This document shows positions 7,032 through 63,816 of a DNA stretch of 64,000 bases, in pieces. Under the pieces are notes generated by a model. The model ran no database searches and was not told the origin of the DNA. It saw only the letters and a list, made by a program, of their open reading frames with translations. The stretch spans positions 1,671 to 65,670 of the forward strand of contig JAZOBJ010000013.1 of assembly GCA_045595895.1 (NCBI GenBank), read 5' to 3'. This DNA comes from Candidatus Alloscybalousia sp. (GTDB lineage: Bacteria > Bacillota_I > Bacilli_A > RF39 > UBA660). Position 1 is the first letter of the stretch, and each line of letters opens with the position of its first letter. The position numbers and the translations under genes are program-made.

Positions 7032-7137
7032 TAATAAAGCATATTCATATGAATATGCTTTTTTCTTTTATATAATTGACTTTCTGTATATTAAATATTA
7101 TAATCAAATTATAAAATATGTTAGGAGGATACGATTT

Positions 7138-8412
7138 ATGGAACGAAAAATATTTTCTGATTTACTTAAATGGAAGAAAGATGTTAATAGAAAACCTTTA
7201 TTACTTTATGGCAATAAACAAATAGGTAAAACTTATAGTGCAATTGAATTTGGAGAAAAGGAATATAAAACTATTGCCTATATTAATAGTGATAATAATA
7301 CTCAGTTTTTATCTATTATGCAAAAAGAAAGAACTATTGATAAAGTTATAGCTAAAATGTCTTTATTAGTTGGTGAATCTATTTTAAAAAATGATACATT
7401 AATTATTATTGATAATGTAGTGGATGAAGATATAGTTAAAGCTATAAAAAAATTTGGAAAAGAAGCTAATGATTATCATATTATTATGATTACTTCTTTG
7501 AAAGAGAAACTTTCTGTTTTTAAGGGTGAAGAATTACAATATAAATATATGTTTCCAATGGATTTTGAAGAATATTTGATGGCCGTTGGTAATTTAGAAC
7601 TAATAGATTTTATTAGAACTTCATATCGTAATAATAAGGCTATGCCTTTTCATAGTATAGCTATGGATTATTATGAAGAATATTTAATAACTGGTGGTCT
7701 TCCAGAATCTGTATTTGCTTCTATTAATAAAGAATCTGATTTAAAAATTAAAATTATTCAACAAAAACAATTAGATAGTTATAAAAAAGAATTTTTATAT
7801 ATGAATAATTTAATTGATATTACACGTTGTAATGATGTATTAAATATAATTCCATATCAATTATTAAAATCCAATAGAAAGTTCCAATATGGTCTTATGA
7901 GAACTGGTGGTAGAAGTAAAGATTATGAAACTGCTTTAGATTTCTTATCTAATAATGGTATTGCTTATAAGTGTTATAAAATTAGTGAAGTTAAACCTCC
8001 ACTTAGTAAGTGTAAAGATCAAGAGAGTTTTAAATTATATTTAAATGATACAGGTATTTTATTTATGATGATGCATTTATCTAGAATAAAGCTATTTACT
8101 GATGATAGTTTAAAATATATTTTATATGAAAATAATTTAGCTAATACCATTATCTCTTGTGGTTATAATTTATATTACTATCAATCAGAAGGTAAAGCTG
8201 AAGTCCCTTTTGTTGTACAAACTAGGGCTGGTAAAATTATTCCTATTGAGATAGTTAATAAAAATTTATCTAAAGCTAAGTCATTATCATTGTTTATGAG
8301 TAAATTTGAAATTAATGAAGCTATTCGTTTTACTGAAGATAACTTTAGCATGAAAAAAGGAATTAAATATGTTCCTATTTATGCAGCCTTCTGTTTAAAA
8401 GAAAATTTATAA
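7138..8412 (+). CDS. AAA-superfamily ATPase of the DUF4143/AAA_14 type (COG1373-like)
   Basis: N-terminal P-loop-like LLLYGNKQIGKTY, length 424 aa, with the C-terminal DUF4143-like region. RBS aggagga. Confidence 0.5.
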   Translation: MERKIFSDLLKWKKDVNRKPLLLYGNKQIGKTYSAIEFGEKEYKTIAYINSDNNTQFLSIMQKERTIDKVIAKMSLLVGESILKNDTLIIIDNVVDEDIVKAIKKFGKEANDYHIIMITSLKEKLSVFKGEELQYKYMFPMDFEEYLMAVGNLELIDFIRTSYRNNKAMPFHSIAMDYYEEYLITGGLPESVFASINKESDLKIKIIQQKQLDSYKKEFLYMNNLIDITRCNDVLNIIPYQLLKSNRKFQYGLMRTGGRSKDYETALDFLSNNGIAYKCYKISEVKPPLSKCKDQESFKLYLNDTGILFMMMHLSRIKLFTDDSLKYILYENNLANTIISCGYNLYYYQSEGKAEVPFVVQTRAGKIIPIEIVNKNLSKAKSLSLFMSKFEINEAIRFTEDNFSMKKGIKYVPIYAAFCLKENL

Positions 8413-8500
8413 AAATTTACTAAAAAGTTAATAAAATTATTAAAACGTTGAAATAATATATATCGTTTTAATATAAAATACAACAGAAAAGAGGTAAAAT

Positions 8501-10000
8501 ATGAGACCGATTTTATTAACAATTATAGATGGTTTTGGACTTCGTGATGAAGTAAAAGGTAATGCTGTTAAATTAGCTAATAAACCTAATTTTGATATGT
8601 TGTGGAATAGTTTTCCACATTCAACATTGAGTGCTAGTGGTAGAGATGTAGGTTTGCCTGAAGGTCAAATGGGTAACTCTGAAGTTGGACATTTAAATAT
8701 AGGTGGTGGAAGAATAGTTTATCAACCTTTTGAACTTATTAATAAAAAGATTGAAGATAAAACTTTTTTTGATAATAGTCAATTAAAAGGTGTTATGGAC
8801 CATGTTAAAAATAATAATTCTAAACTACATATATTTGGACTTCTAAGTGATGGTGGTATTCATTCCCATATTAATCATATTTTTGCGTTATTAGAGATGG
8901 CTAAAAAAGAGGGTGTTAGCGAAGTTTATGTACATGCTTTCTTAGATGGTAGAGATACTTTACCTGACATAGCTTTAACCTTCTTAAAACAGTTGCAATC
9001 TGAGATGGATGAATTAGGTATTGGTAAACTAGCTGATATTTCAGGTAGATATTATTCAATGGATCGTGAGAGAATGTGGGATTTAACTAAAAAATATTAT
9101 GATTTATTAGTTAATAAAGTTGGAAATGTTGTCTTTGATTTAGAAAAATATATTCAAGATAGTTATAATAATAATATATATGATGAATTTATAGTTCCTG
9201 GTATTGTTACTTCTAGTGGTAATTTGGAAGAAAATGATGGTTTAATTTTTGCTAATTTTAGACCAGATCGTGCTACTCAGACATTTACTGCTATAACTAA
9301 TCCTGAGTTTAATGAATTTGAAACTAAAAAGTTTAGTAATATAAAATTGGTGACTATGATGCCAGTTGAGAAAAGTATAATTTCTACTAATGCTTTTTGT
9401 ATTCCTGATGTTACTAACTGTTTAGGTGAATATTTGGATAAAAATAATAAAAAAGTTTTAAGAATAGCTGAAGCTAGTAAATATCCACATGTAACATATT
9501 TCTTTGATGGTGGTAAAGATATGGAATTACCTGGTACTGATAAGATTATTATTCCAAGAAAGAATGTTGCGACTTATGATATAGCTCCGGAAATGTCAGC
9601 TAAGGAAATAACAGATAAGCTTATTCCGATTATAGAAAACTATGATGTTATTATTTTAAACTTTGCAAACTGTGATATGGTTGGGCATACTGGTAATTTA
9701 GAAGCGGCTATTACTGCTGTTGAAACAGTTGATGAATGTATTGGTAGACTATATGAAAAAATCAAAGAAATTAATGGTTTGATGATCGTAACTGCAGATC
9801 ATGGAAATTGTGAACTTATGATTGATGAAGATGATAATATAATTACATCACATACTACTAATAGGGTGCCATTTATAATATGCAATAATAATTTGAAGTT
9901 AGTAGATGGTAAACTTGGTGATATTGCGCCAACTATTCTAAAATTAATGAATTTAGAAATTCCTAGTGATATGACTGGTGATATTTTAATGAAAGACTAA
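8501..10000 (+). CDS. gpmI: 2,3-bisphosphoglycerate-independent phosphoglycerate mutase
   Basis: MRPILLTIIDGFG..SEVGHLNIGGGRIVYQ and the C-terminal metal-binding phosphatase domain ADHGN. 499 aa. RBS aagaggtaa. Confidence 0.9.
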   Translation: MRPILLTIIDGFGLRDEVKGNAVKLANKPNFDMLWNSFPHSTLSASGRDVGLPEGQMGNSEVGHLNIGGGRIVYQPFELINKKIEDKTFFDNSQLKGVMDHVKNNNSKLHIFGLLSDGGIHSHINHIFALLEMAKKEGVSEVYVHAFLDGRDTLPDIALTFLKQLQSEMDELGIGKLADISGRYYSMDRERMWDLTKKYYDLLVNKVGNVVFDLEKYIQDSYNNNIYDEFIVPGIVTSSGNLEENDGLIFANFRPDRATQTFTAITNPEFNEFETKKFSNIKLVTMMPVEKSIISTNAFCIPDVTNCLGEYLDKNNKKVLRIAEASKYPHVTYFFDGGKDMELPGTDKIIIPRKNVATYDIAPEMSAKEITDKLIPIIENYDVIILNFANCDMVGHTGNLEAAITAVETVDECIGRLYEKIKEINGLMIVTADHGNCELMIDEDDNIITSHTTNRVPFIICNNNLKLVDGKLGDIAPTILKLMNLEIPSDMTGDILMKD

Positions 10001-10016
10001 AATTAGTCTTTTTTTT
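9994..10016 (+). terminator. rho-independent terminator after gpmI
   Basis: Hairpin agactaaaattagtct followed by T8. Confidence 0.45.
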
Positions 10017-10063
10017 GACATTGTTTTTTGATTTTTTATCTTATAATACTGTTGGTGATATTA

Positions 10064-10236
10064 TGAAAGTAAAAATATTTGATTTTGAGGATGAAAAAGA
10101 TTTAGAAAAAGCTATTAATGATTTTTTAGATGATAGCATGGATGTTGTTGATATTAAATATCAAGTGTCTATGGGAATATTTAGTGAGGAACAGATATAT
10201 TGTTTTTCAGCAATGATAGTTTATGCAAAAAAATAG
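10064..10236 (+). CDS. small sporulation-type protein, Cse60-like (57 aa)
   Basis: MKVKIFDFEDEKDLEKAINDFL..VVDIKYQVS..EEQIYCFSAMIVY resembles the sigma-E-controlled 60-aa Cse60 family from memory. RBS ggtga. Confidence 0.35.
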
Positions 10237-10291
10237 ACTTGTTCGATTGTTTATATTTTCTTAATATTTTATAATTATATTGGGTGGTAGT

Positions 10292-11479
10292 ATGAGGGAA
10301 AGACTTATTTTTCATATTGATGTAAATAATGCTTTTTTGTCATGGACTGCTGTTGATTTATTGAAAAAAGGTTATGAGATAGATATTCGTACTATTCCAT
10401 CGGTAATTGGTGGAGATGAGGAGTCTAGACGTGGAATAGTGACTGCTAAAAGTCCGGTAGCTAAGAAAATGGGGGTAGTAACAGCAGAGCCACTTTATAT
10501 GGCTAGAAAAAAGTGTCCAGGTTTAAAAGTGTTTAAGGGTGACTATGAACTTTATCATCGTGAATCTAATAAATTGTATAAATATTTCTGTAATTTTACA
10601 GATAAAATAGAGCGTTATTCTGTAGATGAATGTTTTTTAGATATGACTGGTACTGAGCTTTTATATCCTGATCCTATTGAACTTGCTTATAAGATGAGGG
10701 ACGAAATATATGAGAAGTTTGGTTATACTGTTAACATTGGGATAGCTAATAATAAATTGTGTGCTAAGATGGCAAGTGACTTTGAAAAACCTAATAAAGT
10801 ACATACTTTGTTTAGTTATGAAATAGAAAAGAAAATGTGGCCTCTTTCAGTTACAGAATTATTTATGGTAGGTAAGTCTTCTAGTAAAATTTTAATGGAA
10901 ATAGGTATTAAAACAATAGGTGATTTAGCTAAAACAGATATTATTTTTTTAAGAAGAAGATTCAAGAGTCAAGGTGATATGATGCATGAATATGCTAATG
11001 GTATTGATTTTAGTGAAGTGGAAGGAAATAGAGCTAAAAGTAAAAGTATTAGTGTTACTGAGACTTTGCCTGTTGATATTGATTCGATTTCGGGGTTTAA
11101 AAAAATATTACTTCCTCAAGCAGATAAAGTTGGTAAACAAGCTAGACGTGAGAAACTTTATGCTAAAACTATAGCTATTATCTTTAAAACAAGTGATTTT
11201 GTTTCTTATACTCATCAAATGAAATTAGTAAATCCTACAAATGTTACTTCTGAAATATATAATTATGCATTAGAAATTTTGGAAAAAGGTTGGAGAGGGG
11301 AGCCTCTTAGATTGATTGGAATAAGACTTGCTGATTTTACTAATGATAATAGTAAACAAATATCATTATTCGATACAGTTAAAGATACTGGGAATGATAA
11401 AATTCAGGAAGTACTTGATAACATTAGTGATAAATATGGTGATGGTGTTATTATGCCGGCATCTCTTAAGAAAAAATAA
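10292..11479 (+). CDS. dinB: Y-family DNA polymerase IV
   Basis: IFHIDVNNAFLSWTAVD with a catalytic D.. motif, SVDECFLDMTG and the little-finger domain. RBS gggtgg. Confidence 0.8.
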   Translation: MRERLIFHIDVNNAFLSWTAVDLLKKGYEIDIRTIPSVIGGDEESRRGIVTAKSPVAKKMGVVTAEPLYMARKKCPGLKVFKGDYELYHRESNKLYKYFCNFTDKIERYSVDECFLDMTGTELLYPDPIELAYKMRDEIYEKFGYTVNIGIANNKLCAKMASDFEKPNKVHTLFSYEIEKKMWPLSVTELFMVGKSSSKILMEIGIKTIGDLAKTDIIFLRRRFKSQGDMMHEYANGIDFSEVEGNRAKSKSISVTETLPVDIDSISGFKKILLPQADKVGKQARREKLYAKTIAIIFKTSDFVSYTHQMKLVNPTNVTSEIYNYALEILEKGWRGEPLRLIGIRLADFTNDNSKQISLFDTVKDTGNDKIQEVLDNISDKYGDGVIMPASLKKK

Positions 11480-14694: not shown

Positions 14695-15951
14695 ATGGAA
14701 TTTATGATATTAACAGAAGATGAATATAGACAATTTATAAATGGTAATAGTATGACATCTTTTATGCAAACTGTGGAGCTTTCTAATTTAAAAAAAGAAT
14801 TAGGAAGTAAAGTTCATTTTGTAGGAGTTAAAAAAGGTAAAAAAGTAGTAGCAGGTTCTATGATATTAGAAGATTCTACTATTCTTAATAAAAAGATGTT
14901 TTATGCTCCACGTGGTTTGATTGTTGATTATCATAATAAAGAACTTCTTGCATTTTTTACTTGTGAGTTAAAGAAATATATAAAGATGAATAATGGTTTT
15001 ATATTAACGATTGATCCTAATGTTATTTATAGGGTTAGAACTAGTGATGGTGAAATTGATCCCAATAATAATGCTGATGATGAGTCAGTTGATAATTTGA
15101 TTAGTTTAGGGTATAAGCATCATGGTTTTAATCTATATCTAGATACTATGCAAGCTAGATGGTGTTATTTATTTAGTTTAGATGAAGATTATGAAACTAA
15201 AAAATCTAAATTTTCAAAGAGTACTAGAAAAAATATTGACTTTTGCAAGAAAAAAGGTTTAATGGTAAGAGAGGGTACTATTGATGATTTAGCTGTTATG
15301 GCGGAGATTTTTGAGATAACTTCTAAAAGAAAAGATTTCTTTTCTAGGAGTTTAGAATATTATCAAAAAATGTATTATCATTTGAAAAATTTAATGACTA
15401 TATATATAGCTTATTTAGATCCAGAAATTTATTATAATCATACATTAAGTTTATTAGAAGTAGCTAAAAAAAATTATGAAGTTGTTTTGGATAAGATGGA
15501 AAAAGATATGGTTGGTAGTAAACTTATTAATCAAAAAGAAACAGCTTTGAAACAAATTTCTAAATATGAAAAAGAATTGGAAAAAGCTAGCAAGTTTAAG
15601 AAAGATTACCCTAATGGTAAGGATATTGGTTGCTTGTTATCTCTTAGATCTGGGGATGAGTATTTAACTTTATCAAGTGGTACTTTAGCTGAATATAGAG
15701 AATTTACTCCTAAGTATTTAATGTATGAGCATCATATTAAAGAGGCTTATAATGAAGGATTTAAGTACTGTAATTTTTATGGAATAACAGGGGACTTTAA
15801 TCCTAATGGTAAGTATTATGGAATATATGAATTTAAAAAAGGATTTAATGGTAATGTCATTGAATATATAGGACAATTTGAATTAGCAGTTACTGGCTTT
15901 TATTCGGTTTATAAAATATTAAAAAGAATAAAGAAATTTATTGGGAGGTAG
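14695..15951 (+). CDS. FemAB-family peptidoglycan interpeptide-bridge aminoacyltransferase, paralog 1
   Basis: FemX/FemA-like GNAT-fold N and C domains with a coiled-coil insertion (KETALKQISKYEKELEKA) and YGITGDFNPNGKYYGIYEFKKGFNG at the C-terminus. Confidence 0.75.
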   Translation: MEFMILTEDEYRQFINGNSMTSFMQTVELSNLKKELGSKVHFVGVKKGKKVVAGSMILEDSTILNKKMFYAPRGLIVDYHNKELLAFFTCELKKYIKMNNGFILTIDPNVIYRVRTSDGEIDPNNNADDESVDNLISLGYKHHGFNLYLDTMQARWCYLFSLDEDYETKKSKFSKSTRKNIDFCKKKGLMVREGTIDDLAVMAEIFEITSKRKDFFSRSLEYYQKMYYHLKNLMTIYIAYLDPEIYYNHTLSLLEVAKKNYEVVLDKMEKDMVGSKLINQKETALKQISKYEKELEKASKFKKDYPNGKDIGCLLSLRSGDEYLTLSSGTLAEYREFTPKYLMYEHHIKEAYNEGFKYCNFYGITGDFNPNGKYYGIYEFKKGFNGNVIEYIGQFELAVTGFYSVYKILKRIKKFIGR

Positions 15952-16477: not shown

Positions 16478-17752
16478 TTAGTGAATCTTATTTTTTATAT
16501 TCTTTAATAGTTTGTATATTTTAAATGCTAGGTTATATATGATATATAATTTTTTATTTATTACTAAATCAAATTCTCCAATAAGTTCAACTACTTCGGC
16601 ACCAAATCCTCTTTTAAAATCAAATAATCCGTAGTTTTTAGATTCTTTTTTAAAGTCACCATCAATTCCGTAGAAATTGAATGTTTGATAGTTATATTCT
16701 TTTGCATAATTAATCATTTGCCATTGTAGTAAATATTGTGAGTTATATTTCATGAATTCTTTATATGAAGCACCAAGTAGATACACTAATTGATTTCCAT
16801 ATAACATATATAATCCACCAGCTATTATTTTAGTATTACCGTATTTTTCTTTATGTTCTTTTAAGTCATTAATTCTTTTTTCGAAAGATTTTGTTTCATT
16901 TTCAAGTTCATTTAATTGGTTTTGTTTTCTTGGATTATCTTTCATTTTTTCTATTTTTTCTTGTAGTTCTTTGTATTCTGCTTCAGTTTTTTCTAGAAGT
17001 TCTTTAAAGTTTATTTCTACTAATAGAACTTTTACTAAATTATCTTTACTTAGGACATCATAAATGTTTTGATAATAAGATAACGGTCTATCGATAAATT
17101 CTCTTCTATCGGCTGTATGTTTCATTAGTGCTTTAAATTCATTTAAATCTTCTCGTTTACATTCAATGACTCTTAAACAGTTCTTTTCACTGTTACGGAT
17201 TGACCATCTAGTAGTGGCTCTCATATCTTTTAGAATCTCATCTGTAGTTTTGTCTTCTATATTAAGCACTGATAACCATCTTGGTTCTAAGTCTTTTTTA
17301 TCATCCATAGTTATATAAAACCCTTGATGAGTAAAACCTAATTCTTTTAATTTGGTTACTAATTTATCATTTTTAGTATTTTCTATTGGTTCACCATTAA
17401 TATCTCTTTCTTGGTATTTAACATAGGGATTAATCTTTAAAAAAAGAGCATTTTTATCTTTTAAATAACTTTTAATTTCGTTAGTGAATGTTTCCAATAG
17501 ATCTAAATTATTATAATCTAATAGAAAACCACGTGGTGCGTATACCATGTTTTTATTTATTCCTTTTATGTTTTTAAATAATAGAACAGTAGCAGCTACT
17601 ATTTTATTATTTTCTTTGATACCAACCATTTTTCCTTGCCAGTTATTTTCTTTTTTTATTTCAATCCAATATGGGCTTTGAAAGAATAGAGAGTAGGGAT
17701 AATCTTTAGAAAATTCTATAAATTCTTCTTTTTCTAGTTCAATTAATTTCAT
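16478..17752 (-). CDS. FemAB-family aminoacyltransferase, paralog 2
   Basis: YAPRGFLLDY, a coiled-coil insert and YGIDGDFKKESKNYGLFDFKRGFGA. Confidence 0.75.
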   Translation of the reverse strand: MKLIELEKEEFIEFSKDYPYSLFFQSPYWIEIKKENNWQGKMVGIKENNKIVAATVLLFKNIKGINKNMVYAPRGFLLDYNNLDLLETFTNEIKSYLKDKNALFLKINPYVKYQERDINGEPIENTKNDKLVTKLKELGFTHQGFYITMDDKKDLEPRWLSVLNIEDKTTDEILKDMRATTRWSIRNSEKNCLRVIECKREDLNEFKALMKHTADRREFIDRPLSYYQNIYDVLSKDNLVKVLLVEINFKELLEKTEAEYKELQEKIEKMKDNPRKQNQLNELENETKSFEKRINDLKEHKEKYGNTKIIAGGLYMLYGNQLVYLLGASYKEFMKYNSQYLLQWQMINYAKEYNYQTFNFYGIDGDFKKESKNYGLFDFKRGFGAEVVELIGEFDLVINKKLYIIYNLAFKIYKLLKNIKNKIH

Positions 17753-19035
17753 TTTTGACCTCTTTTCATTTTAGCCATTTTTTTAATTATATTACGATAT
17801 ATTGGTACAAGTTTTGTGAATACAAAATACATTGGTTTATTAATTATGTAATCAAATTCACCTGTGAATTCAACGTAATCTCCACCAAATTTCTTTTTAA
17901 ATTCATGAAGACCCATTAATGGATTATTGTTCCTTAAATCACCTATTGTACCAAATTGGTCATATATTTTTAGGCCTTTATCATAATAATATTTTATATG
18001 TTCCTTGTATGTTTTATAGTTTGTGTATGTATCAGTTAAAATATTATGATTTCCAGCATATAATACCCAAGCTTTATTTCCATATTCAATGATAAAGTGA
18101 GCACTTAGTGTAATATTATTATCATATTCTGTTCTTAGACTAATATATTTTTCTAAATCTGAATTGATTTTATTTAATCTTTTTTGTATTTCTTGTTTTT
18201 TTGTATTTTGGCTCTTACTTAGATTTTCTGTTGGTAGTTCATTTAGTTCCTTTTCTAAAACAGTTTTAGTGTTAGTTTGAACATTTATAATTTTGTCTAG
18301 ATTTACTGTTCCTAAGAAGATGTTGCATGAATTATCTTGGTTCCATATTTCATATAGTGATTTATAATACTGTTCATTATGTGTTATAAAGTCTTTTCTG
18401 TTTTCAGTTATAATCATTAAATTATAAAAAGTGTTAATATCATTTTTTGTTCCTATTTGAACATTAATAAATAAATCTTCAGCTTTTTTTATTCTTTGTT
18501 TTGTTGTTTTAGAGAAGTTGTTTTCAATTTCTTCCCAATTTTTTTCAAAGTTAATTCTAAATGTATATCTTGGTTGCATTGTTTCAAAGTTTTTAGTAAA
18601 ACCTAAATGTTTATATTTTAACTTTTTTAATATATTAAATTCTTTAGTGTTGTTTGTTATGATTTTGTTACCATTTATATCTTCGCTATTGTAGATTAAA
18701 TCAGGATCTATCTTGAAAAAAATAGCTTTATTTCTTTTAGAATAATTATTTAATTCTTTAGTGAATTCTGTTAATAATTCCTCGTTATCATAATCTAAAA
18801 CAAATCCACGTGGTACATAAAAGTAACACATTCCAAGTGGTAATTTTTTTTCTAAAAGAAGTGCAGTTGCGACTAGTTGGTTGTTGTCGTCGACTAATCC
18901 TACATAATGGGGAAATAAATTTTTTTCTTTTTTAGAAAATTCACCCCAAGCATAAGATTGTAAAAAATGGCTTTTTTTATGATTTTTAACAAACTCTTCA
19001 TATCTATCTTTTTCTACATTTTTTATAAATTTCAT
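17749..19035 (-). CDS. FemAB-family aminoacyltransferase, paralog 3
   Basis: YVPRGFVLDY, a coiled-coil insert and FGTIGDLRNNNPLMGLHEFKKKFGG. ATGA overlap with paralog 2. RBS ggtga. Confidence 0.75.
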   Translation of the reverse strand: MKFIKNVEKDRYEEFVKNHKKSHFLQSYAWGEFSKKEKNLFPHYVGLVDDNNQLVATALLLEKKLPLGMCYFYVPRGFVLDYDNEELLTEFTKELNNYSKRNKAIFFKIDPDLIYNSEDINGNKIITNNTKEFNILKKLKYKHLGFTKNFETMQPRYTFRINFEKNWEEIENNFSKTTKQRIKKAEDLFINVQIGTKNDINTFYNLMIITENRKDFITHNEQYYKSLYEIWNQDNSCNIFLGTVNLDKIINVQTNTKTVLEKELNELPTENLSKSQNTKKQEIQKRLNKINSDLEKYISLRTEYDNNITLSAHFIIEYGNKAWVLYAGNHNILTDTYTNYKTYKEHIKYYYDKGLKIYDQFGTIGDLRNNNPLMGLHEFKKKFGGDYVEFTGEFDYIINKPMYFVFTKLVPIYRNIIKKMAKMKRGQK

Positions 19036-40467: not shown

Positions 40468-40524
40468 TGTCATAACTACTGATTTTCTACATATAGTTAA
40501 ATGAAATAGAAAGTGAGTGTTAAT

Positions 40525-42000
40525 ATGGATAAAAAAGACATTATAAAAAATATTGCTCTTCGTACAGGTGGAGATATTTATCTTGGTGTAGTAGGTGCAG
40601 TTCGTACTGGTAAAAGTACTTTTATTAAAAAAGTTGTTGAGAATTTAATTGTTCCTAATATTGAAGATGAATATGAAAGAAAGAGAGCTTTAGATGAAGT
40701 TCCACAGAGTGCAGCGGGTAAAACTATTATGACTACTGAACCTAAGTTTGTTCCTAATACAGCTGCTAAAGTTAATATTGATGATTTTAGTTGTAATATT
40801 AGATTAATTGATTGTGTTGGTTACTTAATTGAAAATGCTAAGGGTGCTGAGGATGAGAATGGACCAAGGCTTGTAAAAACACCTTGGTATGATGATCCAA
40901 TTGCTTTTAGTGAAGCTGCTGAAATCGGTACAGAAAAAGTAATTAAAGATCATTCTACGATTGGAATAGTTGTAACAACGGATGGAAGTATTGGCGAATT
41001 TAGTCGAAGCGATTATATAGAAGCTGAAACTAGAGTTATACGTGAACTCAAAGAACTTGGGAAACCATTTATAGTTGTTGTTAATTCAACTCATCCGATG
41101 GTACCTGAAACTGAAAAAATTTGTGAGAAGCTTAAAGAAGAGTATGATGTACCAGTTATTGCTATGAATGTTGATAATATGAATCAAAAAGATATGTATG
41201 ATATTTTAAGAGAAGCTTTATATGAATTTCCAATTTTAGAAGTTAAGGTTAATATGCCAGAATGGATAGCTATTTTAAATCATAAGAATGAAATTAAAAA
41301 AAGTTATATTGATGCGATTAGAGAAAGCGTTGTTGAAATAGATAAATTAAGAGATGTTGAAAAAATTACGGAACATTTTATGGGTGTTGAGAATATTTCA
41401 AAAGCTTATTTATCGGATATTGATCCTTCTACAGGTGAAGTTACTATTAATTTAGAAGCACCAACTGAACTATACAATAAAGTATTAACTGATATTATTA
41501 AAATTGATGTTACTAATAAGGCTCAATTATTATCGTTATTTCAAGATTTTAACGAAGCTAAAAGGGAATATGATCAAATTAAATATGCACTTAAGATGGT
41601 TAAACAAACTGGATATGGTGTGGCTTCCCCAACACTTGATGATATGAAACTTGATACTCCAGAGATAACTAAACAGGGTCCTAGATATGGTGTTAAACTA
41701 AAAGCTACAGCGCCATCAATACATATGATTAGAGTTGATGTTAATTCAACATTTGAACCAATTATAGGTAGTGAAATGCAAAGTAAAGAATTAATTGACT
41801 ATTTAATGAAAGACAAGGATAAAGATCCTAGTTGTATTTGGAAAAGTGAAATCTTTGGTAGAAGTTTAGATGTGATTGTTCAAGAGGGAATTCAATCTAA
41901 GATTAGTATGATGCCTGATAATATTAGGTTTAAACTTCAAAATACTTTAACTAAAATAGTTAATAAAGGTTCAAATAATATGATTGCATTTGTGTTATAA
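40525..42000 (+). CDS. spoIVA: stage IV sporulation protein A (spore coat basement-layer ATPase)
   Basis: Near-colinear with Bacillus SpoIVA: DIIKNIALRTGGDIYLGVVGAVRTGKSTFIKK, PQSAAGKTIMTTEPKFVP, IRLIDCVGY, ALKMVKQTGYGVASP and SIHMIRVDV. The upstream gtcataac...catatagt sequence may be a sigma-E-type promoter; this is weak. Confidence 0.9.
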   Translation: MDKKDIIKNIALRTGGDIYLGVVGAVRTGKSTFIKKVVENLIVPNIEDEYERKRALDEVPQSAAGKTIMTTEPKFVPNTAAKVNIDDFSCNIRLIDCVGYLIENAKGAEDENGPRLVKTPWYDDPIAFSEAAEIGTEKVIKDHSTIGIVVTTDGSIGEFSRSDYIEAETRVIRELKELGKPFIVVVNSTHPMVPETEKICEKLKEEYDVPVIAMNVDNMNQKDMYDILREALYEFPILEVKVNMPEWIAILNHKNEIKKSYIDAIRESVVEIDKLRDVEKITEHFMGVENISKAYLSDIDPSTGEVTINLEAPTELYNKVLTDIIKIDVTNKAQLLSLFQDFNEAKREYDQIKYALKMVKQTGYGVASPTLDDMKLDTPEITKQGPRYGVKLKATAPSIHMIRVDVNSTFEPIIGSEMQSKELIDYLMKDKDKDPSCIWKSEIFGRSLDVIVQEGIQSKISMMPDNIRFKLQNTLTKIVNKGSNNMIAFVL

Positions 42001-57821: not shown

Positions 57822-58871
57822 ATGGGACTATTTAATAAGATTAAAAATATTTTTGTAAAAGAAGAAAAGATAGAAGAAAAAGAAAGTGTAGAAGTAGTTG
57901 ATTTTACTAATGAAGCAGTGGGAGAAACTGTTGCTAAAGAAGAACAAACAGTTAAAGTTTATGAAAAAGGACTTACTAAGAGTCGTAAGGGTTTTGTTTC
58001 AAATTTAATTTCACTTACTTCTCGTTATAGTAAAATAAATGATGATTATTTTGATGAATTAGAAGAAATCTTAATTATGGCTGATATTGGTGTTAATACA
58101 GTTATGAAGTTTATGGATCGTTTACGTGATCGTGTAAAACATGAAAAAATAGAAGATCCTAATTTATTAAAAGAAGTTATAGTTGATGAATTATTTATTA
58201 TTTATGTAGATGATAATATTTTAGAAAGTAAAATTAAATATAGTGAGAGTAGACCTACAGTTTTATTATTTGTTGGTGTTAATGGGGTAGGTAAAACTAC
58301 TACCATTGGAAAACTTGCTAGTAAAATGATTAGTGAGGGTAAAAAGGTTTTATTAGTAGCTGGTGATACTTTTAGAGCTGGTGCAACTAAACAACTTGAG
58401 GAATGGGCTTTTAGGGTTGGCGCTAGTTTTGTTGGTAGAGAAGAGGGCTGTGATCCAGCAAGTGTTGTTTTTGATGGATTACAAAAAGCTAAGAAAGAAG
58501 CTTTTGATGTTGTATTAATAGATACAGCTGGTAGACTTCAGAATAAAGTTAATCTAATGAATGAGCTTGAAAAAATTAATCGTGTTATTGCTAGAGAAAT
58601 ACCTGATGCACCACATGAGACATTATTAATAATTGATGCAACAACAGGTCAAAATGGAATAAGCCAAGCTAAGAGTTTTAAAGAAATTACTAATATTACA
58701 GGTATTGTTTTAACTAAATTAGATGGTACTGCTAAGGGTGGTATCGTACTTGCCATTAAAGAGGAAGTTAATATTCCAGTTAAATATATTGGACTTGGAG
58801 AAACAAAAGATGATTTACAACCTTTTGATATTGAGACGTATATTTATGGATTATTTAAAGATATGATGTAG
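57822..58871 (+). CDS. ftsY: signal recognition particle receptor FtsY (short N-terminus)
   Basis: NG domain motifs GVNGVGKTTT, DTAGR and TKLDGTAKGG. RBS aggagga. Confidence 0.9.
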   Translation: MGLFNKIKNIFVKEEKIEEKESVEVVDFTNEAVGETVAKEEQTVKVYEKGLTKSRKGFVSNLISLTSRYSKINDDYFDELEEILIMADIGVNTVMKFMDRLRDRVKHEKIEDPNLLKEVIVDELFIIYVDDNILESKIKYSESRPTVLLFVGVNGVGKTTTIGKLASKMISEGKKVLLVAGDTFRAGATKQLEEWAFRVGASFVGREEGCDPASVVFDGLQKAKKEAFDVVLIDTAGRLQNKVNLMNELEKINRVIAREIPDAPHETLLIIDATTGQNGISQAKSFKEITNITGIVLTKLDGTAKGGIVLAIKEEVNIPVKYIGLGETKDDLQPFDIETYIYGLFKDMM

Positions 58872-58878
58872 GTGAGTT

Positions 58879-59169
58879 ATGGATAGAAAGATTTATTTTA
58901 ATAACTTATATGATTATTATCAGGATTTATTTACTGATAAACAAAAAGAATATTATGAAGCATATTATTTTAAAGATTTGTCTTTAGCTGAAATAGCTGA
59001 AAATAATGGTGTTAGTAGAAATGCTGTTCATGGACAAATTAAAATAGTTGAAGAAAAATTAGAATTTTATGAACAAGTGCTTTGTTTATATAAGAAGTCT
59101 TTAAAGATGCATGAAATACTTAGAGATGTCGATAGTGATTTAAGAAAAAGAATAGAGGAAATAATTTAG
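58879..59169 (+). CDS. ylxM: YlxM/UPF0122 putative HTH protein of the SRP operon
   Basis: 96 aa with LSLAEIAENNGVSRNAVHGQI, the sigma-70 region-4-like HTH typical of YlxM. Confidence 0.7.
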   Translation: MDRKIYFNNLYDYYQDLFTDKQKEYYEAYYFKDLSLAEIAENNGVSRNAVHGQIKIVEEKLEFYEQVLCLYKKSLKMHEILRDVDSDLRKRIEEII

Positions 59170-59184
59170 TTTTGGAGGGGTACT

Positions 59185-60939
59185 ATGTTTGATAAGATTA
59201 CTTATGTAGGAGATACTGTAGTTGAAATTAAGTTACTAGCGGGTATTAATAATAATATTGATATTATGAATATGCCTATTATTTTACAGGATGATAATAA
59301 GAGTATTTTAGCTGAAATAAAAGATCTTAATTTTGACTCAGTTAAGGCTAAAATGCTTGGTGAAATTATTAATGATAAATTTATTAGTGGTATATTGAGA
59401 AAACCAAATCTTAATGCTAAAATCAGATCATTAAATGAAAATGAACTTTATTATATAGTTAATAAGGAAGAAAAAGAAAACCTACTGTTAGGTGTTAGTC
59501 CTTTTTATGATAATAAATCAGTTTATGTTGACATGAATGAACTATTTAGTAAACATACATGTATTTTTGGTAATACTGGTAGTGGTAAGAGTTGTGGAGT
59601 AGCTAGAATATTACAAAATGTATTTAATAATCCTAGTTTTGTTCCTTTCAGATCTAATTTCTTTATTTTTGATTCAACAGGTGAATATTATTCTGCTTTT
59701 TCTAAGATAAATGAAATTAATCCTAATTATAATTATCGTTTTATAACTACTAATTCTAATAGTCCATATGAAGGGGAATTATTAAAAATACCAGTATGGT
59801 TACTTAATGTTGATGATTTAGCTCTTTTATTGTCGGCTAATACACATACACAGATTTCAATACTTGAAAAAACATTAAAATTAGTTAAGATATTTTCTCA
59901 AACTGATGAAACGGCAATCAATTATCAAAATCATTTAATAGCTAGTGCGGTTATGACTATTTTATATTCAAATCAAGTAGCTGCTAGTAAAAGGGATGAA
60001 ATATTTACTATTTTAAATACTTGTGCAACAGATGCGTTTAATTTGAATTCTACTGTACAAGGTATTGGTTACACAAGAAGACTTCAAGATTGTTTCTTGA
60101 TTGATACTTCTGGTAACTTCTCAGAGAGAGTTTTACTTACTGAGTATGTTAATAATTATATTAAACCTGAATTAAATAGATATGAACCAGATAAAGTTAA
60201 TTATTATACTTTAGATGATTTGGAAAGGGCTTTAAATTTTGCGTTAATTAGTGAAGGTTGGCTTAGAAATGAAAATGTTTATGCTGATGCGATTACTTTA
60301 AGGGTTAAATTACATGAGTTAGTAATTGGACCTAATAGAAAATTCTTCGAATGTAAGGATTTTGTTAGAATAGATCAATTTATTAGTAGTTTAATAATAG
60401 TTAAAGATACAAAATATCAAATAGTTAATATTAATTTAGAAGATGTTGATGATAGTTTTGCGAAGAGTGTTGTTAAAATATTTACTAGGCTTATCTTTGA
60501 TCTTTCTAAGAAGATTCAGAGGGGTAGTATTCCATTTAATATTATGTTAGAAGAAGCTCATAGATATGTTCAACATGATACTGATGAATTCTTATTTGGT
60601 TATAATATTTTTGATAGGGTAGCTAAAGAGGGAAGAAAGTATGGAGTTTTAATGACTTTAATTAGTCAAAGACCTGTTGATTTATCTGAGACTGTTATAT
60701 CTCAATGTTCTAACTTTATTATATTTAAAATGAGTCATCCTAGAGATATTGAGTATATTACTAAGATGATACCTAATATTACAGAAGATACTATTGAAAA
60801 ACAGAAATCACTTCAAGTTGGTAATTGTTTAGCTTTTGGTTCTGGTTTTAAGATACCTATTGTGGTTAGATTGGAACTTCCTAATCCAGTGCCTCAAGGT
60901 AGTAGTTGTGATGTTGTTCATAAGTGGACAAGTAATTAA
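59185..60939 (+). CDS. HerA/DUF87-type (FtsK-HerA superfamily) P-loop ATPase inserted between ylxM and ffh
   Basis: Walker A CIFGNTGSGKSCG, FIFDSTGEY, Walker B IMLEEAHRY and GRKYGVLMTLISQRP. N-terminal small barrel-like region. RBS ggagggg. Confidence 0.6.
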   Translation: MFDKITYVGDTVVEIKLLAGINNNIDIMNMPIILQDDNKSILAEIKDLNFDSVKAKMLGEIINDKFISGILRKPNLNAKIRSLNENELYYIVNKEEKENLLLGVSPFYDNKSVYVDMNELFSKHTCIFGNTGSGKSCGVARILQNVFNNPSFVPFRSNFFIFDSTGEYYSAFSKINEINPNYNYRFITTNSNSPYEGELLKIPVWLLNVDDLALLLSANTHTQISILEKTLKLVKIFSQTDETAINYQNHLIASAVMTILYSNQVAASKRDEIFTILNTCATDAFNLNSTVQGIGYTRRLQDCFLIDTSGNFSERVLLTEYVNNYIKPELNRYEPDKVNYYTLDDLERALNFALISEGWLRNENVYADAITLRVKLHELVIGPNRKFFECKDFVRIDQFISSLIIVKDTKYQIVNINLEDVDDSFAKSVVKIFTRLIFDLSKKIQRGSIPFNIMLEEAHRYVQHDTDEFLFGYNIFDRVAKEGRKYGVLMTLISQRPVDLSETVISQCSNFIIFKMSHPRDIEYITKMIPNITEDTIEKQKSLQVGNCLAFGSGFKIPIVVRLELPNPVPQGSSCDVVHKWTSN

Positions 60940-60944
60940 TGAAA

Positions 60945-60971
60945 AGACTAGTAAATACTAGTTTTTTTTAG
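60945..60971 (+). terminator. rho-independent terminator after the HerA-like gene
   Basis: Hairpin actagt aaat actagt followed by T8. Confidence 0.5.
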
Positions 60972-61002
60972 TATAATATTAATAGTTTATAGGAGGGATA
61001 AT

Positions 61003-62310
61003 ATGTTTGAATCACTTGGAGATAGACTTCAAAATGCTCTTCATAAGATTAAAGGTTATGGGAAAATTACAGAAGAAAATATTTCTGATATGATGAGAGA
61101 AATTCGTTTAGCTTTACTTGAAGCTGATGTTAATTATCAAGTAGTAAAAGAGTTTACAAATACAGTAAAAGAAAAAGCACTTGGTGAAGAAGTACAAAAA
61201 AGTATTAAACCTGGAGATTTGTTTGTTAAAATAGTAAAGGATGAGTTGACAGAGTTATTAGGTGGTGAAAGTTCTCCACTTAATATGAATGGTAATCCTG
61301 CTACTTTGATGTTAGTTGGGTTACAAGGTTCTGGTAAAACTACTACTATTGGAAAGTTAGCTAACTTCTTAAGAAAGAAGAATAGTAAGAAACCACTTCT
61401 TGTTGCGTGTGATGTTTATCGTCCTGCTGCAATTGATCAGTTGAAACAACTTGGTAAACAACTTGGAATTGAAGTATATGAGGAAGGTAAAAAAGATCCA
61501 GTTGAAATTAGTAAAAATGCAATTAATTACGCTAAACAAAATGGTTATGATTATGTGTTAATTGATACTGCTGGTAGACTTCATATTGATAAAGAGTTAA
61601 TGGAAGAGTTACAAAATATTAACGCTGAAGTTAAACCTCAAGAAGTATTATTAGTAATTGATTCAATGATGGGTCAAGATGCTATTAATGTTATTCAAGG
61701 TTTTAATGATAGTTTAAAGTTAACTGGTGTTATTTTAACTAAGTTAGATGGTGATACACGTGGAGGTGTCGCTTTATCTGTTAGACATTTGACTAATGTA
61801 CCAATTAAATTTATTGGTGTTAGTGAAAAGTTAGATGGTTTAGAAAACTTTGATCCTGAGAGAATGGCTGGTAGAATTTTAGGAATGGGAGATATCATTT
61901 CTCTTGTTGAAAAAGCTACTGAAGTAATAGATGAAGAAGAAGCAATGAGTGCTGCTAAGAAGATGCAGTCTGGTAAATTTGATTTAGAAGATTTTTTAAA
62001 ACAAATGAAACAGATCAAAAAACTTGGACCTCTTGAAAATTTAATTAAGATGTTACCAGGAGCTAAGAAAATGGGACTTACTAATGTAAATATTGATCCT
62101 AAACAAATGGCTCATGTTGAGGCAATTATTCTTTCAATGACACCAAAAGAAAGAAGAAATCCTGATATTATAAAAGCTAGTCGTAAAACACGTATAGCTA
62201 AAGGTTGTGGACTTTCTGTTCAAGAAGTTAATAAATTATTAATGCAATTTGAACAGATGAAAAAAATGATGAAACAGATGTCAAATGGTAATTTTAAAAT
62301 GCCATTTTAG
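61003..62310 (+). CDS. ffh: signal recognition particle protein Ffh
   Basis: GLQGSGKTTT, DTAGR, TKLDGDTRGG and a Met-rich M domain. RBS aggaggg. Confidence 0.95.
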   Translation: MFESLGDRLQNALHKIKGYGKITEENISDMMREIRLALLEADVNYQVVKEFTNTVKEKALGEEVQKSIKPGDLFVKIVKDELTELLGGESSPLNMNGNPATLMLVGLQGSGKTTTIGKLANFLRKKNSKKPLLVACDVYRPAAIDQLKQLGKQLGIEVYEEGKKDPVEISKNAINYAKQNGYDYVLIDTAGRLHIDKELMEELQNINAEVKPQEVLLVIDSMMGQDAINVIQGFNDSLKLTGVILTKLDGDTRGGVALSVRHLTNVPIKFIGVSEKLDGLENFDPERMAGRILGMGDIISLVEKATEVIDEEEAMSAAKKMQSGKFDLEDFLKQMKQIKKLGPLENLIKMLPGAKKMGLTNVNIDPKQMAHVEAIILSMTPKERRNPDIIKASRKTRIAKGCGLSVQEVNKLLMQFEQMKKMMKQMSNGNFKMPF

Positions 62311-62318
62311 GGGGATTT

Positions 62319-62735
62319 ATGAGAAAAAATAGGTTTATATCTAATGATTTTGCTGCAATAACTATAATTAAGATTAAACAGGTTTTGTTTGGTATTGTCT
62401 ATATTACTACTGATGAATTTGAATATATTAGAAATGAGTTGCAAAAAACATTTAATAAAGAGGATAATGGTATGATTATACATAGCGATTTTAATAAATT
62501 TGATCCAGATAATATAGAAGTTAACAATTCAATTATTACTATAGCTGAAGAAGCATCAATCATTTTTGGACCAAATCATAGATTAGCTAATTATTTTTAT
62601 GTTATAGCTGAGCTTATTATGGAATATGCTGAAGAAGAATCAGAAACAAAAAAGTTAGAATTTGAAAGATTTAAAAATGAAAATGATACTTTTGAAGAAA
62701 GACAAATTAGTTTATTAAAGAGACTATCAAATTAA
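62319..62735 (+). CDS. hypothetical protein (138 aa)
   Basis: RBS aggggga, immediately after ffh in the position normally held by rpsP. Confidence 0.4.
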   Translation: MRKNRFISNDFAAITIIKIKQVLFGIVYITTDEFEYIRNELQKTFNKEDNGMIIHSDFNKFDPDNIEVNNSIITIAEEASIIFGPNHRLANYFYVIAELIMEYAEEESETKKLEFERFKNENDTFEERQISLLKRLSN

Positions 62736-62812
62736 TAGTCTTTTTTAGGCCAATTTATTATTGCATAGTTATTTTTTTTCATACTATAAACTAGATAGGA
62801 GGAAAGAAACTA

Positions 62813-63150
62813 TGTTTAGAAATTGTTGTTATGATAGACAAAATGAAGTCAATAACACTTTTAATGCACAAAATATGGATGTCGATATGAATATCGAAAT
62901 GAATAATAATCAGATGATGGGTGCAATGGCTCCACAAATGGCTGGTGGAATGCAAACTCCAATTGTTGAACCTATGCAAGAAAGAGTTGTTAACCGTACT
63001 ATTGTGCATGAAGTTCCACACGTATGTCCTATGAGAACAAGAATAGTTAATCATCATGTTTTCAAACATACTTATCAACCATCTTATTCATGTTGTGAAG
63101 AAAACGTATGTAGTGAAGTTCAATGTGGTTCTTGTTGTAATTTTAGATAA
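62813..63150 (+). CDS. Cys/His/Met-rich spore-coat-like protein (CotD-like)
   Basis: IVEPMQERVVNRTIVHEVPHVCPMRTRIVNHHVFKHTYQPSYSCC...CGSCCNF resembles the inner spore coat protein D repeat pattern. RBS ggaggaaag. Confidence 0.45.
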
Positions 63151-63238
63151 AAAGTCGAAAGACTTTTTTTCTTTTTTATAAAATAATTGACAAAATGTAT
63201 AAACAATGTATATACTATAAGTGATTGGAGTTGATCAT

Positions 63239-63481
63239 ATGGAAGCAAGACTTCAAAAGTGGGGAAATTCAGATGGAATAAGAATTCCTAGCAGTATTTT
63301 AAAATCTTTAAATATAAAAACTAATGATATATTAATTATCGAGCAGCAAGATGATAAAATAATTATTAGTATTCCAAAAAAGAAAAAAGTATCATTAGCT
63401 GACAAGTTTAAAGAATATAAAGGAAAAAATTTAGCTAGAGATTTTACTTGGGATGAAAGTGTAGGCAGAGAAATATGGTAA
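63239..63481 (+). CDS. mazE: MazE/PemI-like antitoxin (SpoVT/AbrB swapped-hairpin)
   Basis: MEARLQKWGNSDGIRIPSSILKSL with a C-terminal acidic/K tail. Overlaps the toxin gene start. Confidence 0.6.
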   Translation: MEARLQKWGNSDGIRIPSSILKSLNIKTNDILIIEQQDDKIIISIPKKKKVSLADKFKEYKGKNLARDFTWDESVGREIW

Positions 63482-63816
63482 AAAAGTATGTGCCTAAACA
63501 AGGGGATGTTGTTTTTCTTGATTTTAATCCAACTAAAGGTCATGAACAATCAGAATTTAGACCTGCTGTTGTTGTGAGTAATAATGTTTTTAATGAGAAC
63601 ACTAAGATGGTAATGGTATGTCCTGTTACATCTAATGATAAAGAATTTCCAACACATTATCATTTAGAAGATACCAAAAATATACAAGGTTCTGTTTTAT
63701 GTGAACATATAAGAAGCATTGATTATGAGATTAGAAATTTGAAATTTGTTGAGAAACTAAGTGATAATGATTTCATTAGTATAATTACATTATTAAATGC
63801 TTGTATAGAGGAATAG
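63475..63816 (+). CDS. mazF: MazF/PemK-family endoribonuclease toxin
   Basis: PKQGDVVFLDFNPTKGHEQSEFRPAVVVSNNVFN...MVMVCPVTS. Confidence 0.7.
   Translation: MVKKYVPKQGDVVFLDFNPTKGHEQSEFRPAVVVSNNVFNENTKMVMVCPVTSNDKEFPTHYHLEDTKNIQGSVLCEHIRSIDYEIRNLKFVEKLSDNDFISIITLLNACIEE

Follow-up and report, generated by a model that had tools for sequence, protein, structure and literature searches.

Is a HerA-type ring ATPase that lies among signal recognition particle (SRP) genes, with no effector gene at its side, an immune gene or a core gene of its host? The question is raised by a stretch of 64,000 nucleotides from contig JAZOBJ010000013.1 of Candidatus Alloscybalousia sp. (the window, by which we mean this whole stretch), in which a herA gene encoding 584 amino acids (aa) stands between ylxM and ffh. 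To our knowledge, bacterial HerA ATPases are understood almost entirely as effector-paired motors, the partner being SIR2, DUF4297 or NurA. An earlier reading of the same DNA, made without database searches (the sequence-only reading), had regarded the arrangement as undescribed, and full-text literature searches likewise returned no description of a HerA in an SRP operon or of a stand-alone core-genome bacterial HerA. Judging by sequence comparison, the window gene belongs to a distinct, effector-less clade (hereafter the solo clade) that is confined to uncultured low-GC gut Bacilli, in metagenome-assembled genomes (MAGs) labelled Bacilli, Tenericutes, CAG:582 or Alloscybalousia. The reading we favour, in which we place about even confidence, is that a defence-type HerA ring motor turned into a vertically inherited core gene and would now act as a housekeeping DNA motor. 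The gene and its immediate surroundings are as follows.

57822 to 58871, + strand: ftsY, SRP receptor (Pfam SRP54 at 2.9e-77, plus SRP54_N), probable first gene of an ftsY-ylxM-herA unit
58879 to 59169, + strand: ylxM, UPF0122 helix-turn-helix protein (PF04297, 8.3e-25)
59174 to 59180, + strand: herA ribosome-binding site GGAGGGG, read from the sequence
59185 to 60939, + strand: herA, effector-less HerA/DUF87 ring ATPase, 584 aa (list of open reading frames, Pfam, PADLOC, AlphaFold2, Foldseek)
60941 to 60970, + strand: intrinsic terminator after herA, with an A/U-rich 12-bp stem and U8 (fold and comparison across loci)
60972 to 60977, + strand: TATAAT, a −10-like element of a putative ffh promoter, kept about 20 nt 5' of the ffh ribosome-binding site in related spacers
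61003 to 62310, + strand: ffh, SRP54 homologue (Pfam SRP54, SRP_SPB and SRP54_N)

Much of this had been described correctly in the sequence-only reading: a same-strand open reading frame (ORF) of 584 aa between ylxM and ffh, a strong ribosome-binding site in front of it, and ftsY, ylxM and ffh at positions where Pfam confirms all three genes. The extent it gave for the feature, 59185-60971, begins rightly at the gene start and runs past the end of the coding sequence at 60939, taking in the terminator.

The assignment to the HerA/DUF87 family had been made from four motifs (GNTGSGKS, DSTGEY, EEAHRY and GRKYGV...ISQRP), all of which are present, and the proposed profile check bears it out, with Pfam DUF87/HerA (PF01935) matching at an E-value of 2.4e-23 and 83.8 bits against a cutoff of 23.2, and PADLOC HerA models matching down to 2.7e-99 (model PDLC04102). 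Structure prediction, also proposed earlier, returned the anticipated HerA fold and N-terminal barrel. The AlphaFold2 model, built from a 35-sequence alignment, has a mean predicted local distance difference test score (pLDDT) of 85.7 and a predicted template modelling score (pTM) of 0.83, and shows a RecA-like core (residues 117-205 and 405-565) flanking a helical bundle. The parts of the protein map to the window as listed here; the DSTGEY motif falls at residues 163-168.

59185 to 59532, + strand: N-terminal HAS-type beta-barrel, residues 1-116 (secondary structure of the AlphaFold2 model)
59569 to 59592, + strand: Walker A motif GNTGSGKS, residues 129-136, invariant in 35 sequences of the solo and SIR2-type clades
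59800 to 60396, + strand: alpha-helical bundle inserted in the RecA-like domain, residues 206-404 (model)
60535 to 60567, + strand: Walker B region NIMLEEAHRY (EEAHRY at residues 456-461), with E456, E457, H459 and R460 invariant in the 35-sequence alignment
60631 to 60675, + strand: GRKYGVLMTLISQRP motif (GRKYGV...ISQRP, residues 483-497), with R484, K485, Q495, R496 and P497 invariant

Because Walker A, Walker B, R460, R484/K485 and Q495-R496-P497 are invariant across the alignment, the ATPase of the window protein is predicted to be intact. The GRKYGVLMTLISQRP motif is a candidate arginine-finger/sensor region, an assignment taken from the family. The best 50 Foldseek matches in the PDB are all anti-phage HerAs of DUF4297-HerA or SIR2-HerA systems (TM-score up to 0.76), and the topology of the alpha-bundle matches that of the solved SIR2-HerA HerA (PMC11472057). 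By sequence, the nearest solved structures are HerAs from anti-phage systems, namely 9c1m (5e-44), 8xau (2e-35) and 8j4u (1e-28), and Sulfolobus HerA (4d2i) matches at 8e-31. By analogy with these solved relatives, the protein would form a hexameric ring with DNA in its channel and would use ATP to translocate or unwind that DNA.

Scores against curated subfamilies are far lower. The NCBIfam anti-phage HerA equivalogs give 159.7 bits against a cutoff of 800 (NF042943) and 158.9 against 850 (NF042944), and the repair models give 126 bits against 800 (HerA_Thermprot) and 88 against 970 (helicase_HerA). Since the scores lie this far below the anti-phage and repair thresholds alike, the window protein is, by its profile scores, a HerA outside every curated HerA subfamily. 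Other ring ATPase families fit no better: Pfam FtsK_SpoIIIE (PF01580) gives 19.2 bits against a cutoff of 24, in the P-loop region only and with no individually significant stretch, TrwB_AAD_bind matches residues 122-174 only, i.e., the P-loop region, and the VirB4 and CD1110 scores are far under their cutoffs. No Pfam family besides the ATPase domain reaches threshold in the window HerA, and no membrane-spanning segment is evident in it by eye. Exact-sequence look-ups of the window HerA and of the protein P0001 returned no record.

The sequence-only reading had treated the gene as an insertion, either lineage-wide or strain-specific, and had suggested inspecting the same spacer in related genomes. 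More than 120 homologues are full-length (about 584 aa, 71-83% identity), and all of them come from gut MAGs. A species scan that retained one genome per species gave 33 loci, labelled uncultured Bacilli, Tenericutes, Bacillales or Candidatus Scybalousia (now Alloscybalousia) intestinigallinarum; ylxM and herA lie on the same strand in all 33, with ftsY syntenic on the 5' side of the pair and with ftsY and ffh present wherever the contig is long enough. A profile-guided metagenome scan contributed 80 further loci at 49-81% HerA identity, about 47 of which keep the order (ftsY and/or ylxM on the 5' side, or ffh on the 3' side, with Ffh 71-90% identical). The SRP arrangement is ancient and occurs in more than 80 loci, with HerA identity falling as low as 49%; this leaves a recent insertion unsupported, and a strain-specific one is rejected.

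The divergence of the gene points the same way. HerA distances track Ffh distances across the 35 loci with complete genes (Mantel r = 0.81, with none of 2000 permutations as high), where identity averages 0.70 between HerA pairs, 0.86 between Ffh pairs and 0.63 between YlxM pairs. In 60 close pairs, the ratio of nonsynonymous to synonymous substitution (dN/dS, NG86) has an approximate median of 0.095 in herA, compared with 0.040 in ffh and 0.160 in ylxM. Because HerA and Ffh distances correlate and dN/dS is about 0.10, herA bears the mark of vertical inheritance with strong purifying selection. GC content over herA (0.25-0.29) is close to that of the neighbouring genes, in a window of about 0.24-0.35. 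The gene is full-length in more than 110 loci. At one locus only (L081 4543-6297) it is split into ORFs of 144 and 466 aa, which points to a frameshift, an assembly error or a rare pseudogene.

If the gene is ancient and selected, does it have an effector that has been overlooked? The sequence-only reading had noted no partner, transposase or integrase close by, and this holds: no transposase or integrase is found near herA, no conjugation genes lie within the window, and no SIR2, NurA, DUF4297 or nuclease candidate for a partner occurs among the ORFs of all 64 kb, unannotated ORFs included, a span that takes in the ground just beyond operon distance, where a cognate nuclease would by its own account have refuted that reading. 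Its description of the flanks as purely housekeeping does not hold, since two ORFs of unassigned function and then a MazE/MazF pair follow ffh. Across the related loci, a tblastn search for SIR2 gave zero matches in the chromosomal loci L001-L033 and L036-L115, no DUF4297 nuclease was found in scanned neighbours or cargo, and NurA was absent from the scanned neighbours. Two places where a partner might hide were considered and rejected. The gap between ylxM and herA is widened at four loci (L003, L014, L025 and L027), where it holds a second HerA paralogue, and the genes that often separate herA from ffh encode proteins of the surface, the membrane or transport, or of unknown kind. Nucleases, SIR2 and NurA are absent from this cargo, and none of its proteins screened against PADLOC matches a defence model. 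As a separate observation, loci of CAG:582 type carry a staphylococcal-nuclease-like (SNase) gene (L119 12187-12837, L121 17215-17764 and L122 16465-17169) that is conserved in the neighbourhood; its distance from herA is 2.4-7 kb, it is encoded on the other strand and it is not operonic.

Other members of the solo clade lie in entirely different places. In an oriC-type context, rsmG-mnmG-mnmE-jag-yidC-rnpA on the minus strand is followed by herA-dnaA-dnaN-recF-gyrB, and herA stands between rnpA and dnaA in L091, L097, L098, L109-L112, L114 and L115 (e.g., L114 6824-8755). The rnpA-dnaA gap is the usual site of the replication origin in Bacillota. In a gat context the order is asnS-gatC-gatA-gatB-herA, followed by a ThiF-like gene (by eye), gpsA, rarA and xerD. 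Of these neighbours, RNase P, YidC, DnaA, DnaN, RecF, GatA and GatB were confirmed by profile and the rest were read by eye. The earliest-branching solo group, from CAG:582-type MAGs, has a monocistronic herA divergent from a gene for an LtaS-like sulfatase, and two deep representatives lie 3' of yqeH and 3' of a BY-type tyrosine kinase gene, respectively. A ParA/MinD link considered for the paralogue P0132 was rejected, the neighbour being a BY-type tyrosine autokinase (TIGR01007). A neighbour-joining tree (134 sequences) groups the genes by genomic context, one subclade per context, which implies a few relocations with vertical descent after each. No effector gene shared among the SRP, dnaA, gatCAB, LtaS-like and yqeH contexts was found. 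Because sister subclades occupy these other housekeeping contexts, the SRP adjacency is probably incidental, a historical landing site rather than a functional link.

The organisation of the SRP operon itself fits this view of the adjacency. The spacer between the ylxM stop and the herA start is 15 nt in the window and at most 38 nt in 55 of 74 loci. The sequence-only reading had credited herA with its own hairpin terminator. Taken alone, the window hairpin is weak (dG −10.6, z −1.04), and a consensus terminator scan did not call it. Comparison across loci, however, argues for it. The herA-ffh spacer is short (15-116 nt) in 30 of the 60 loci carrying both genes, and in 24 of those 30 a hairpin with a T-run lies just 3' of the herA stop; the stem sequences vary between species, and therefore the structure is what is conserved. 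Because hairpins with T-runs recur in this way with differing stems, we take the herA terminator to be real. The TATAAT that follows it would function as the −10 element of an ffh-specific promoter. Given the conserved terminator after herA and the TATAAT before ffh, the transcription unit is most likely ftsY-ylxM-herA, ending at that terminator, with ffh on its own promoter.

In the other 30 loci, 0.2-5.7 kb of unrelated cargo lies between herA and ffh, and the site 3' of herA would appear to be an insertion hot spot. The cargo comprises DUF5684 membrane proteins, cadherin-like and DUF285/VWA surface proteins, ABC transporters, a serpin, a beta-lactamase-like protein, a LytTR regulator and fmt. 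Six DUF5684 cargo copies have a long disordered tail (L010 2168-2974, L014 7759-9219, L017 7740-9059, L019 7769-8737, L024 7733-8953 and L025 7759-9276), and four of the six finish at the C-terminus with almost the same peptide (LSSELSFLDSIL or LSNEISLIDSIL), perhaps a short linear motif.

How, then, does the window protein relate to HerAs of known function? Its nearest relatives outside the solo clade are the HerAs of SIR2-HerA systems (Paenibacillus sp. 453MF, E. coli Nezha, and plasmid copies in Listeria and Enterococcus), which share the barrel, RecA-like core and alpha-bundle fold and the catalytic motifs, at 31-36% identity over residues 32-581 and a Foldseek E-value of about 1e-26. The nearest 50%-identity cluster (P0134; 35-36% identity to the window HerA) is scattered over Proteiniborus, Acetobacterium, Caproiciproducens and Fretibacterium (Clostridia and Synergistota), with herA 3' of a SIR2_2 gene in islands with transposases or PD-(D/E)XK and PLD nucleases. 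The nearest plasmid relatives, in Listeria and Enterococcus (31-32% identity over residues 53-581), follow an overlapping SIR2 gene. No plasmid or phage copy above 32% identity was found, and a phage origin was rejected, just two weak phage matches having been retrieved, one of them to a terminase. In SIR2-HerA systems a SIR2 NADase gene lies directly 5' of herA and usually overlaps it, whereas the window herA has ylxM there; SIR2-HerA genes are patchy and borne on islands or plasmids, whereas solo herA is chromosomal, syntenic and vertical.

The two groups also differ in the barrel. When two solo groups were compared with twelve SIR2-type HerAs, the large indels were three in number, segments of 14, 15 and 10 aa that occur in the SIR2-type proteins only. 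Every one falls within the beta-barrel, behind residues 7, 49 and 93 of the window protein. Conservation is lowest in that domain too, with 20% identity, whereas the RecA core reaches 41-43%. In the solved Paenibacillus complex, two HerA beta-barrels grip the alpha1 helix of SIR2 between them, and the HerA of this complex carries a C-terminal arm, residues 576-696 (PMC11472057). The arm is absent from the model of the window HerA.

The remaining comparisons are to more distant systems. DUF4297-HerA HerAs (9c1m, 8xau and 8ziq) are the best solved matches (5e-44 by sequence, 3e-29 by fold); however, those systems include a gene for a DUF4297/Cap4-like nuclease, of which there is none in the window or related loci, and their HerA is only about 22% identical. 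The archaeal and bacterial NurA-HerA complex for DNA end resection (Sulfolobus, 4d2i, and Deinococcus) has a hexameric DNA translocase of the same HerA family, and its housekeeping role in DNA repair is the analogy we propose for the window protein. The NurA module often includes Mre11/Rad50. In contrast to it, the window herA has no adjoining NurA gene, scores far under the repair cutoffs and is phylogenetically nearer to defence HerAs. FtsK and SpoIIIE, which act in chromosome segregation, are ring pumps of the same FtsK-HerA superfamily and are chromosomally fixed housekeeping genes, making them a possible functional analogue, but the window HerA has neither their N-terminal membrane domain nor their gamma/KOPS-reading domain. 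With the partner gene absent and the curated scores low, the window protein stands outside the SIR2-, DUF4297- and NurA-HerA systems, and by the same sequence evidence it is distinct from FtsK/SpoIIIE and the type IV secretion ATPases in their defining features.

In the neighbour-joining tree the sister group of the solo clade is formed by HerAs from mobile SIR2-HerA systems, which act by abortive infection. Because SIR2-HerA is broad and mobile and the solo clade narrow and vertical, the parsimonious reading is that the clade descends from a defence-type HerA whose effector was lost. Its history would have begun with loss of the SIR2 gene and of the three barrel segments in the domain that docks SIR2, and would have continued, in the lineage of the window, with fixation of herA directly 3' of ylxM and its transcription as part of ftsY-ylxM-herA. 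The hexamer would load DNA in its channel and use ATP to translocate along or unwind it, and a housekeeping DNA transaction, either end processing and repair or chromosome resolution and segregation, would have replaced phage-triggered cell suicide. HerA might collaborate in this with a nuclease encoded elsewhere. Three weak hints point to such a role, namely that herA lies directly 5' of dnaA-dnaN-recF-gyrB in one subclade, that some paralogues have degenerate Walker motifs, as in hetero-oligomeric motors, and that 25 of 114 orthologues have disordered tails, several of them with tips like those of single-stranded DNA-binding proteins (SSBs). Both DNA ends and SSB proteins elicit a response from HerA relatives (PMC13434337).

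Several points weigh against a housekeeping motor of this descent. The tree was made by simple neighbour joining with SIR2-type sequences as the root, and because it is not independently rooted, the direction from defence to housekeeping follows from distribution and the reverse is possible. All loci were retrieved with a HerA query, so the counts cover HerA carriers; each locus was viewed up to about 10 kb on either side, leaving room for an effector encoded in trans; and the dN/dS values are approximate, dS being about 1 and near saturation. The housekeeping contexts have no common theme that indicates a specific pathway. Every carrier is an uncultured MAG, and function is read from relatives. 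Finally, the HerA of type III Sir2-HerA has intrinsic nickase activity on its own (PMC13434337), which makes defence by a lone HerA possible.

The main rival reading is that herA is still an immune gene, either a single-gene HerA defence (e.g., a nickase, as that type III protein nicks DNA alone; PMC13434337) or the motor of a split system with its effector gene at another place in the genome, fixed in a small-genome lineage. All of its nearest characterised relatives by sequence and fold are anti-phage HerAs, a MazEF module and a hot spot for variable cargo lie nearby, and some genomes carry extra HerA paralogues, a sort of diversification that immune genes can also show. We consider it possible but unlikely. 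Synteny over more than 80 loci down to 49% identity, co-divergence with Ffh and a dN/dS of about 0.10 are joined by anti-phage equivalog scores of about 160 bits against cutoffs of 800-850, by the trimming of the SIR2-docking barrel and by the lack of an effector in any scanned neighbourhood, and the patchy, island-borne pattern belongs to the SIR2-HerA outgroup instead. Between the two explanations offered by the sequence-only reading, the domesticated translocase thus fits better than the single-gene defence module, on the strength of the lineage-wide synteny, the low dN/dS, the divergence that tracks Ffh, the trimmed barrel and the lack of mobile copies above 32% identity. A more specific version of domestication, which we hold more tentatively, is that a motor derived from SIR2-HerA became an essential chromosome-maintenance machine in genome-reduced gut Bacilli, replacing another DNA motor and taking over jobs such as FtsK/SpoIIIE-type chromosome clearance or AddAB/RecBCD-type end processing. 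It would explain fixation in SRP, oriC/dnaA and gatCAB operons as well as the dead-ATPase paralogues (possible hetero-hexamers) and the SSB-like tails.

Readings that tie the gene to secretion or sporulation fare worse. The sporulation version, a SpoIIIE-like DNA pump or a coat-related spore-assembly ATPase, draws on a host that encodes Spo0A and SpoIVA, on a weakly CotD-like ORF 3' of ffh (17.4 bits, cutoff 22) that is syntenic in relatives, and on CotE genes adjoining deep-branching HerA paralogues in L094 and L123; but coat-gene adjacency is limited to few loci, the CotD match is sub-threshold and most herA contexts are unrelated to sporulation, and we judge it improbable. A tie to secretion, which the sequence-only reading had also raised, would make the protein a protein-translocating ATPase like EssC/EccC, FtsK-like ATPases that act in type VII secretion, or a factor co-regulated with FtsY and Ffh. 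The tight coupling to ylxM, the preserved ftsY-ylxM-herA-ffh order, a deep-branching paralogue just 5' of rpsP-ylqC in L094 and weak, P-loop-only matches to TrwB, FtsK and EccC models speak for it. We regard it as decidedly improbable, given that sister subclades lie by dnaA, gatCAB, LtaS-like, yqeH and BY-kinase genes with no SRP genes nearby, that the conserved terminator and often 0.9-5.7 kb of unrelated cargo separate herA from ffh, that only the ATPase domain reaches Pfam threshold with no membrane-spanning segment evident by eye, and that the fold matches HerAs acting on DNA. That the gene is a functionless, decaying remnant of SIR2-HerA is suggested by the missing effector gene, but full-length ORFs in more than 110 loci, invariant Walker A and B motifs and arginines, a dN/dS of about 0.10 and a split gene in L081 only leave this reading effectively refuted by the conservation data, with next to no probability.

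Under the favoured reading of a defence-type motor turned core gene, the solo clade represents a HerA motor that has persisted alone over the long term, under strong purifying selection and in essential operons. If true, a ring translocase would plainly have passed between immune and housekeeping functions, the clade would offer a minimal HerA from nature in which motor functions can be studied apart from effector control, and the gene would mark an unrecognised core component in the cell biology of abundant uncultured gut Bacilli. It also carries a warning for annotation, as PADLOC HerA models match the window protein at 1e-99 and a DUF87/HerA match does not automatically denote a defence gene.

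Several solo-clade genomes depart from the single, tailless gene seen in the window. Four species have a tandem herA, in which a second intact paralogue of 587-616 aa, about 53% identical to the window HerA, lies between ylxM and the orthologous herA:

L003 4227-5999: second HerA paralogue
L014 4115-5959: second HerA paralogue
L025 4135-5985: second HerA paralogue
L027 4229-5992: second HerA paralogue

L094 carries two divergent HerA paralogues 5 kb apart (3-1739 and 6992-8884), the deep-branching one being followed by CotE (PF10628, 6.5e-47), rpsP and the KH-domain gene ylqC, and CotE also adjoins the degenerate paralogue P0132 in L123. Degenerate motifs were seen in P0125 (Walker A GNDGFGKS and Walker B LLIDNAHNY), P0132 (ILEKADRY) and P0139 (IIESAEK), which suggests that these full-length paralogues are inactive and may enter mixed rings.

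C-terminal extensions of 20-271 aa, of low complexity and rich in S/N/T/P/Q, account for the tails of the 25 orthologues mentioned above; the window HerA has none. Several end in acidic-aromatic tips (GFDDFN, GIDFE, GDDFA, PNFDDE and TKFNDE), and such tails recall the disordered linker and acidic tip of SSB.

C-termini of L043, L044, L045, L054, L092, L039 and L074: tailed herA orthologues

In L093 the gene directly 3' of herA (8779-10986) encodes a 735-aa protein whose N-terminal domain is of the UvrD-helicase type (2.5e-7) and whose C-terminal part has a zinc-ribbon-like CxxC...CxxxC motif; no other nucleic-acid enzyme was found adjoining a solo HerA, and this one was seen once.

Downstream of ffh, the window holds two ORFs without assigned function and then the toxin-antitoxin pair:

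62319 to 62735: ORF of 138 aa, with no homologue in the related loci
62761 to 63150: ORF of 129 aa, rich in Cys, Met and Asn, syntenic 3' of ffh in most relatives at 44-93% identity, and the source of the sub-threshold CotD-like score (Pfam)
63221 to 63816: MazE antitoxin (PF04014, 2.6e-11) and MazF/PemK toxin (PF02452, 9.3e-27), by Pfam

The mazE and mazF genes overlap by 7 nt, and the pair lies 2.3 kb 3' of herA and 0.9 kb 3' of ffh. The classic genes 3' of ffh are rpsP-ylqC. The sequence-only reading was right that rpsP does not follow ffh here; it was not found anywhere within the 64-kb window, and the 129-aa ORF occupies its expected place.

The rest of the window consists of ordinary core genes, among them, by eye, pgk, tpiA, sigA, gpmI, tyrS, rpsD, ezrA, iscS, thiI, ackA, der and recA, and it also encodes RNase Y, RNase J, RecU, DnaD, FemAB, Spo0A (4820-5593; Spo0A_C, 1.7e-40) and SpoIVA (40513-42000; 4e-108). 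Three genes are of the FemAB family, one by Pfam (14695-15951) and two by eye (16478-19035), and a class A penicillin-binding protein was read by eye. Because Spo0A, SpoIVA, the FemAB genes and the class A penicillin-binding protein are present, the host is apparently one of the low-GC gut Bacilli, with a cell wall and probably the capacity to form spores. Spo0A, SpoIVA and the peptidoglycan genes are consistent with a probable placement of the host in the RF39, RFN20 and ML615J-28 group (PMC10868615).

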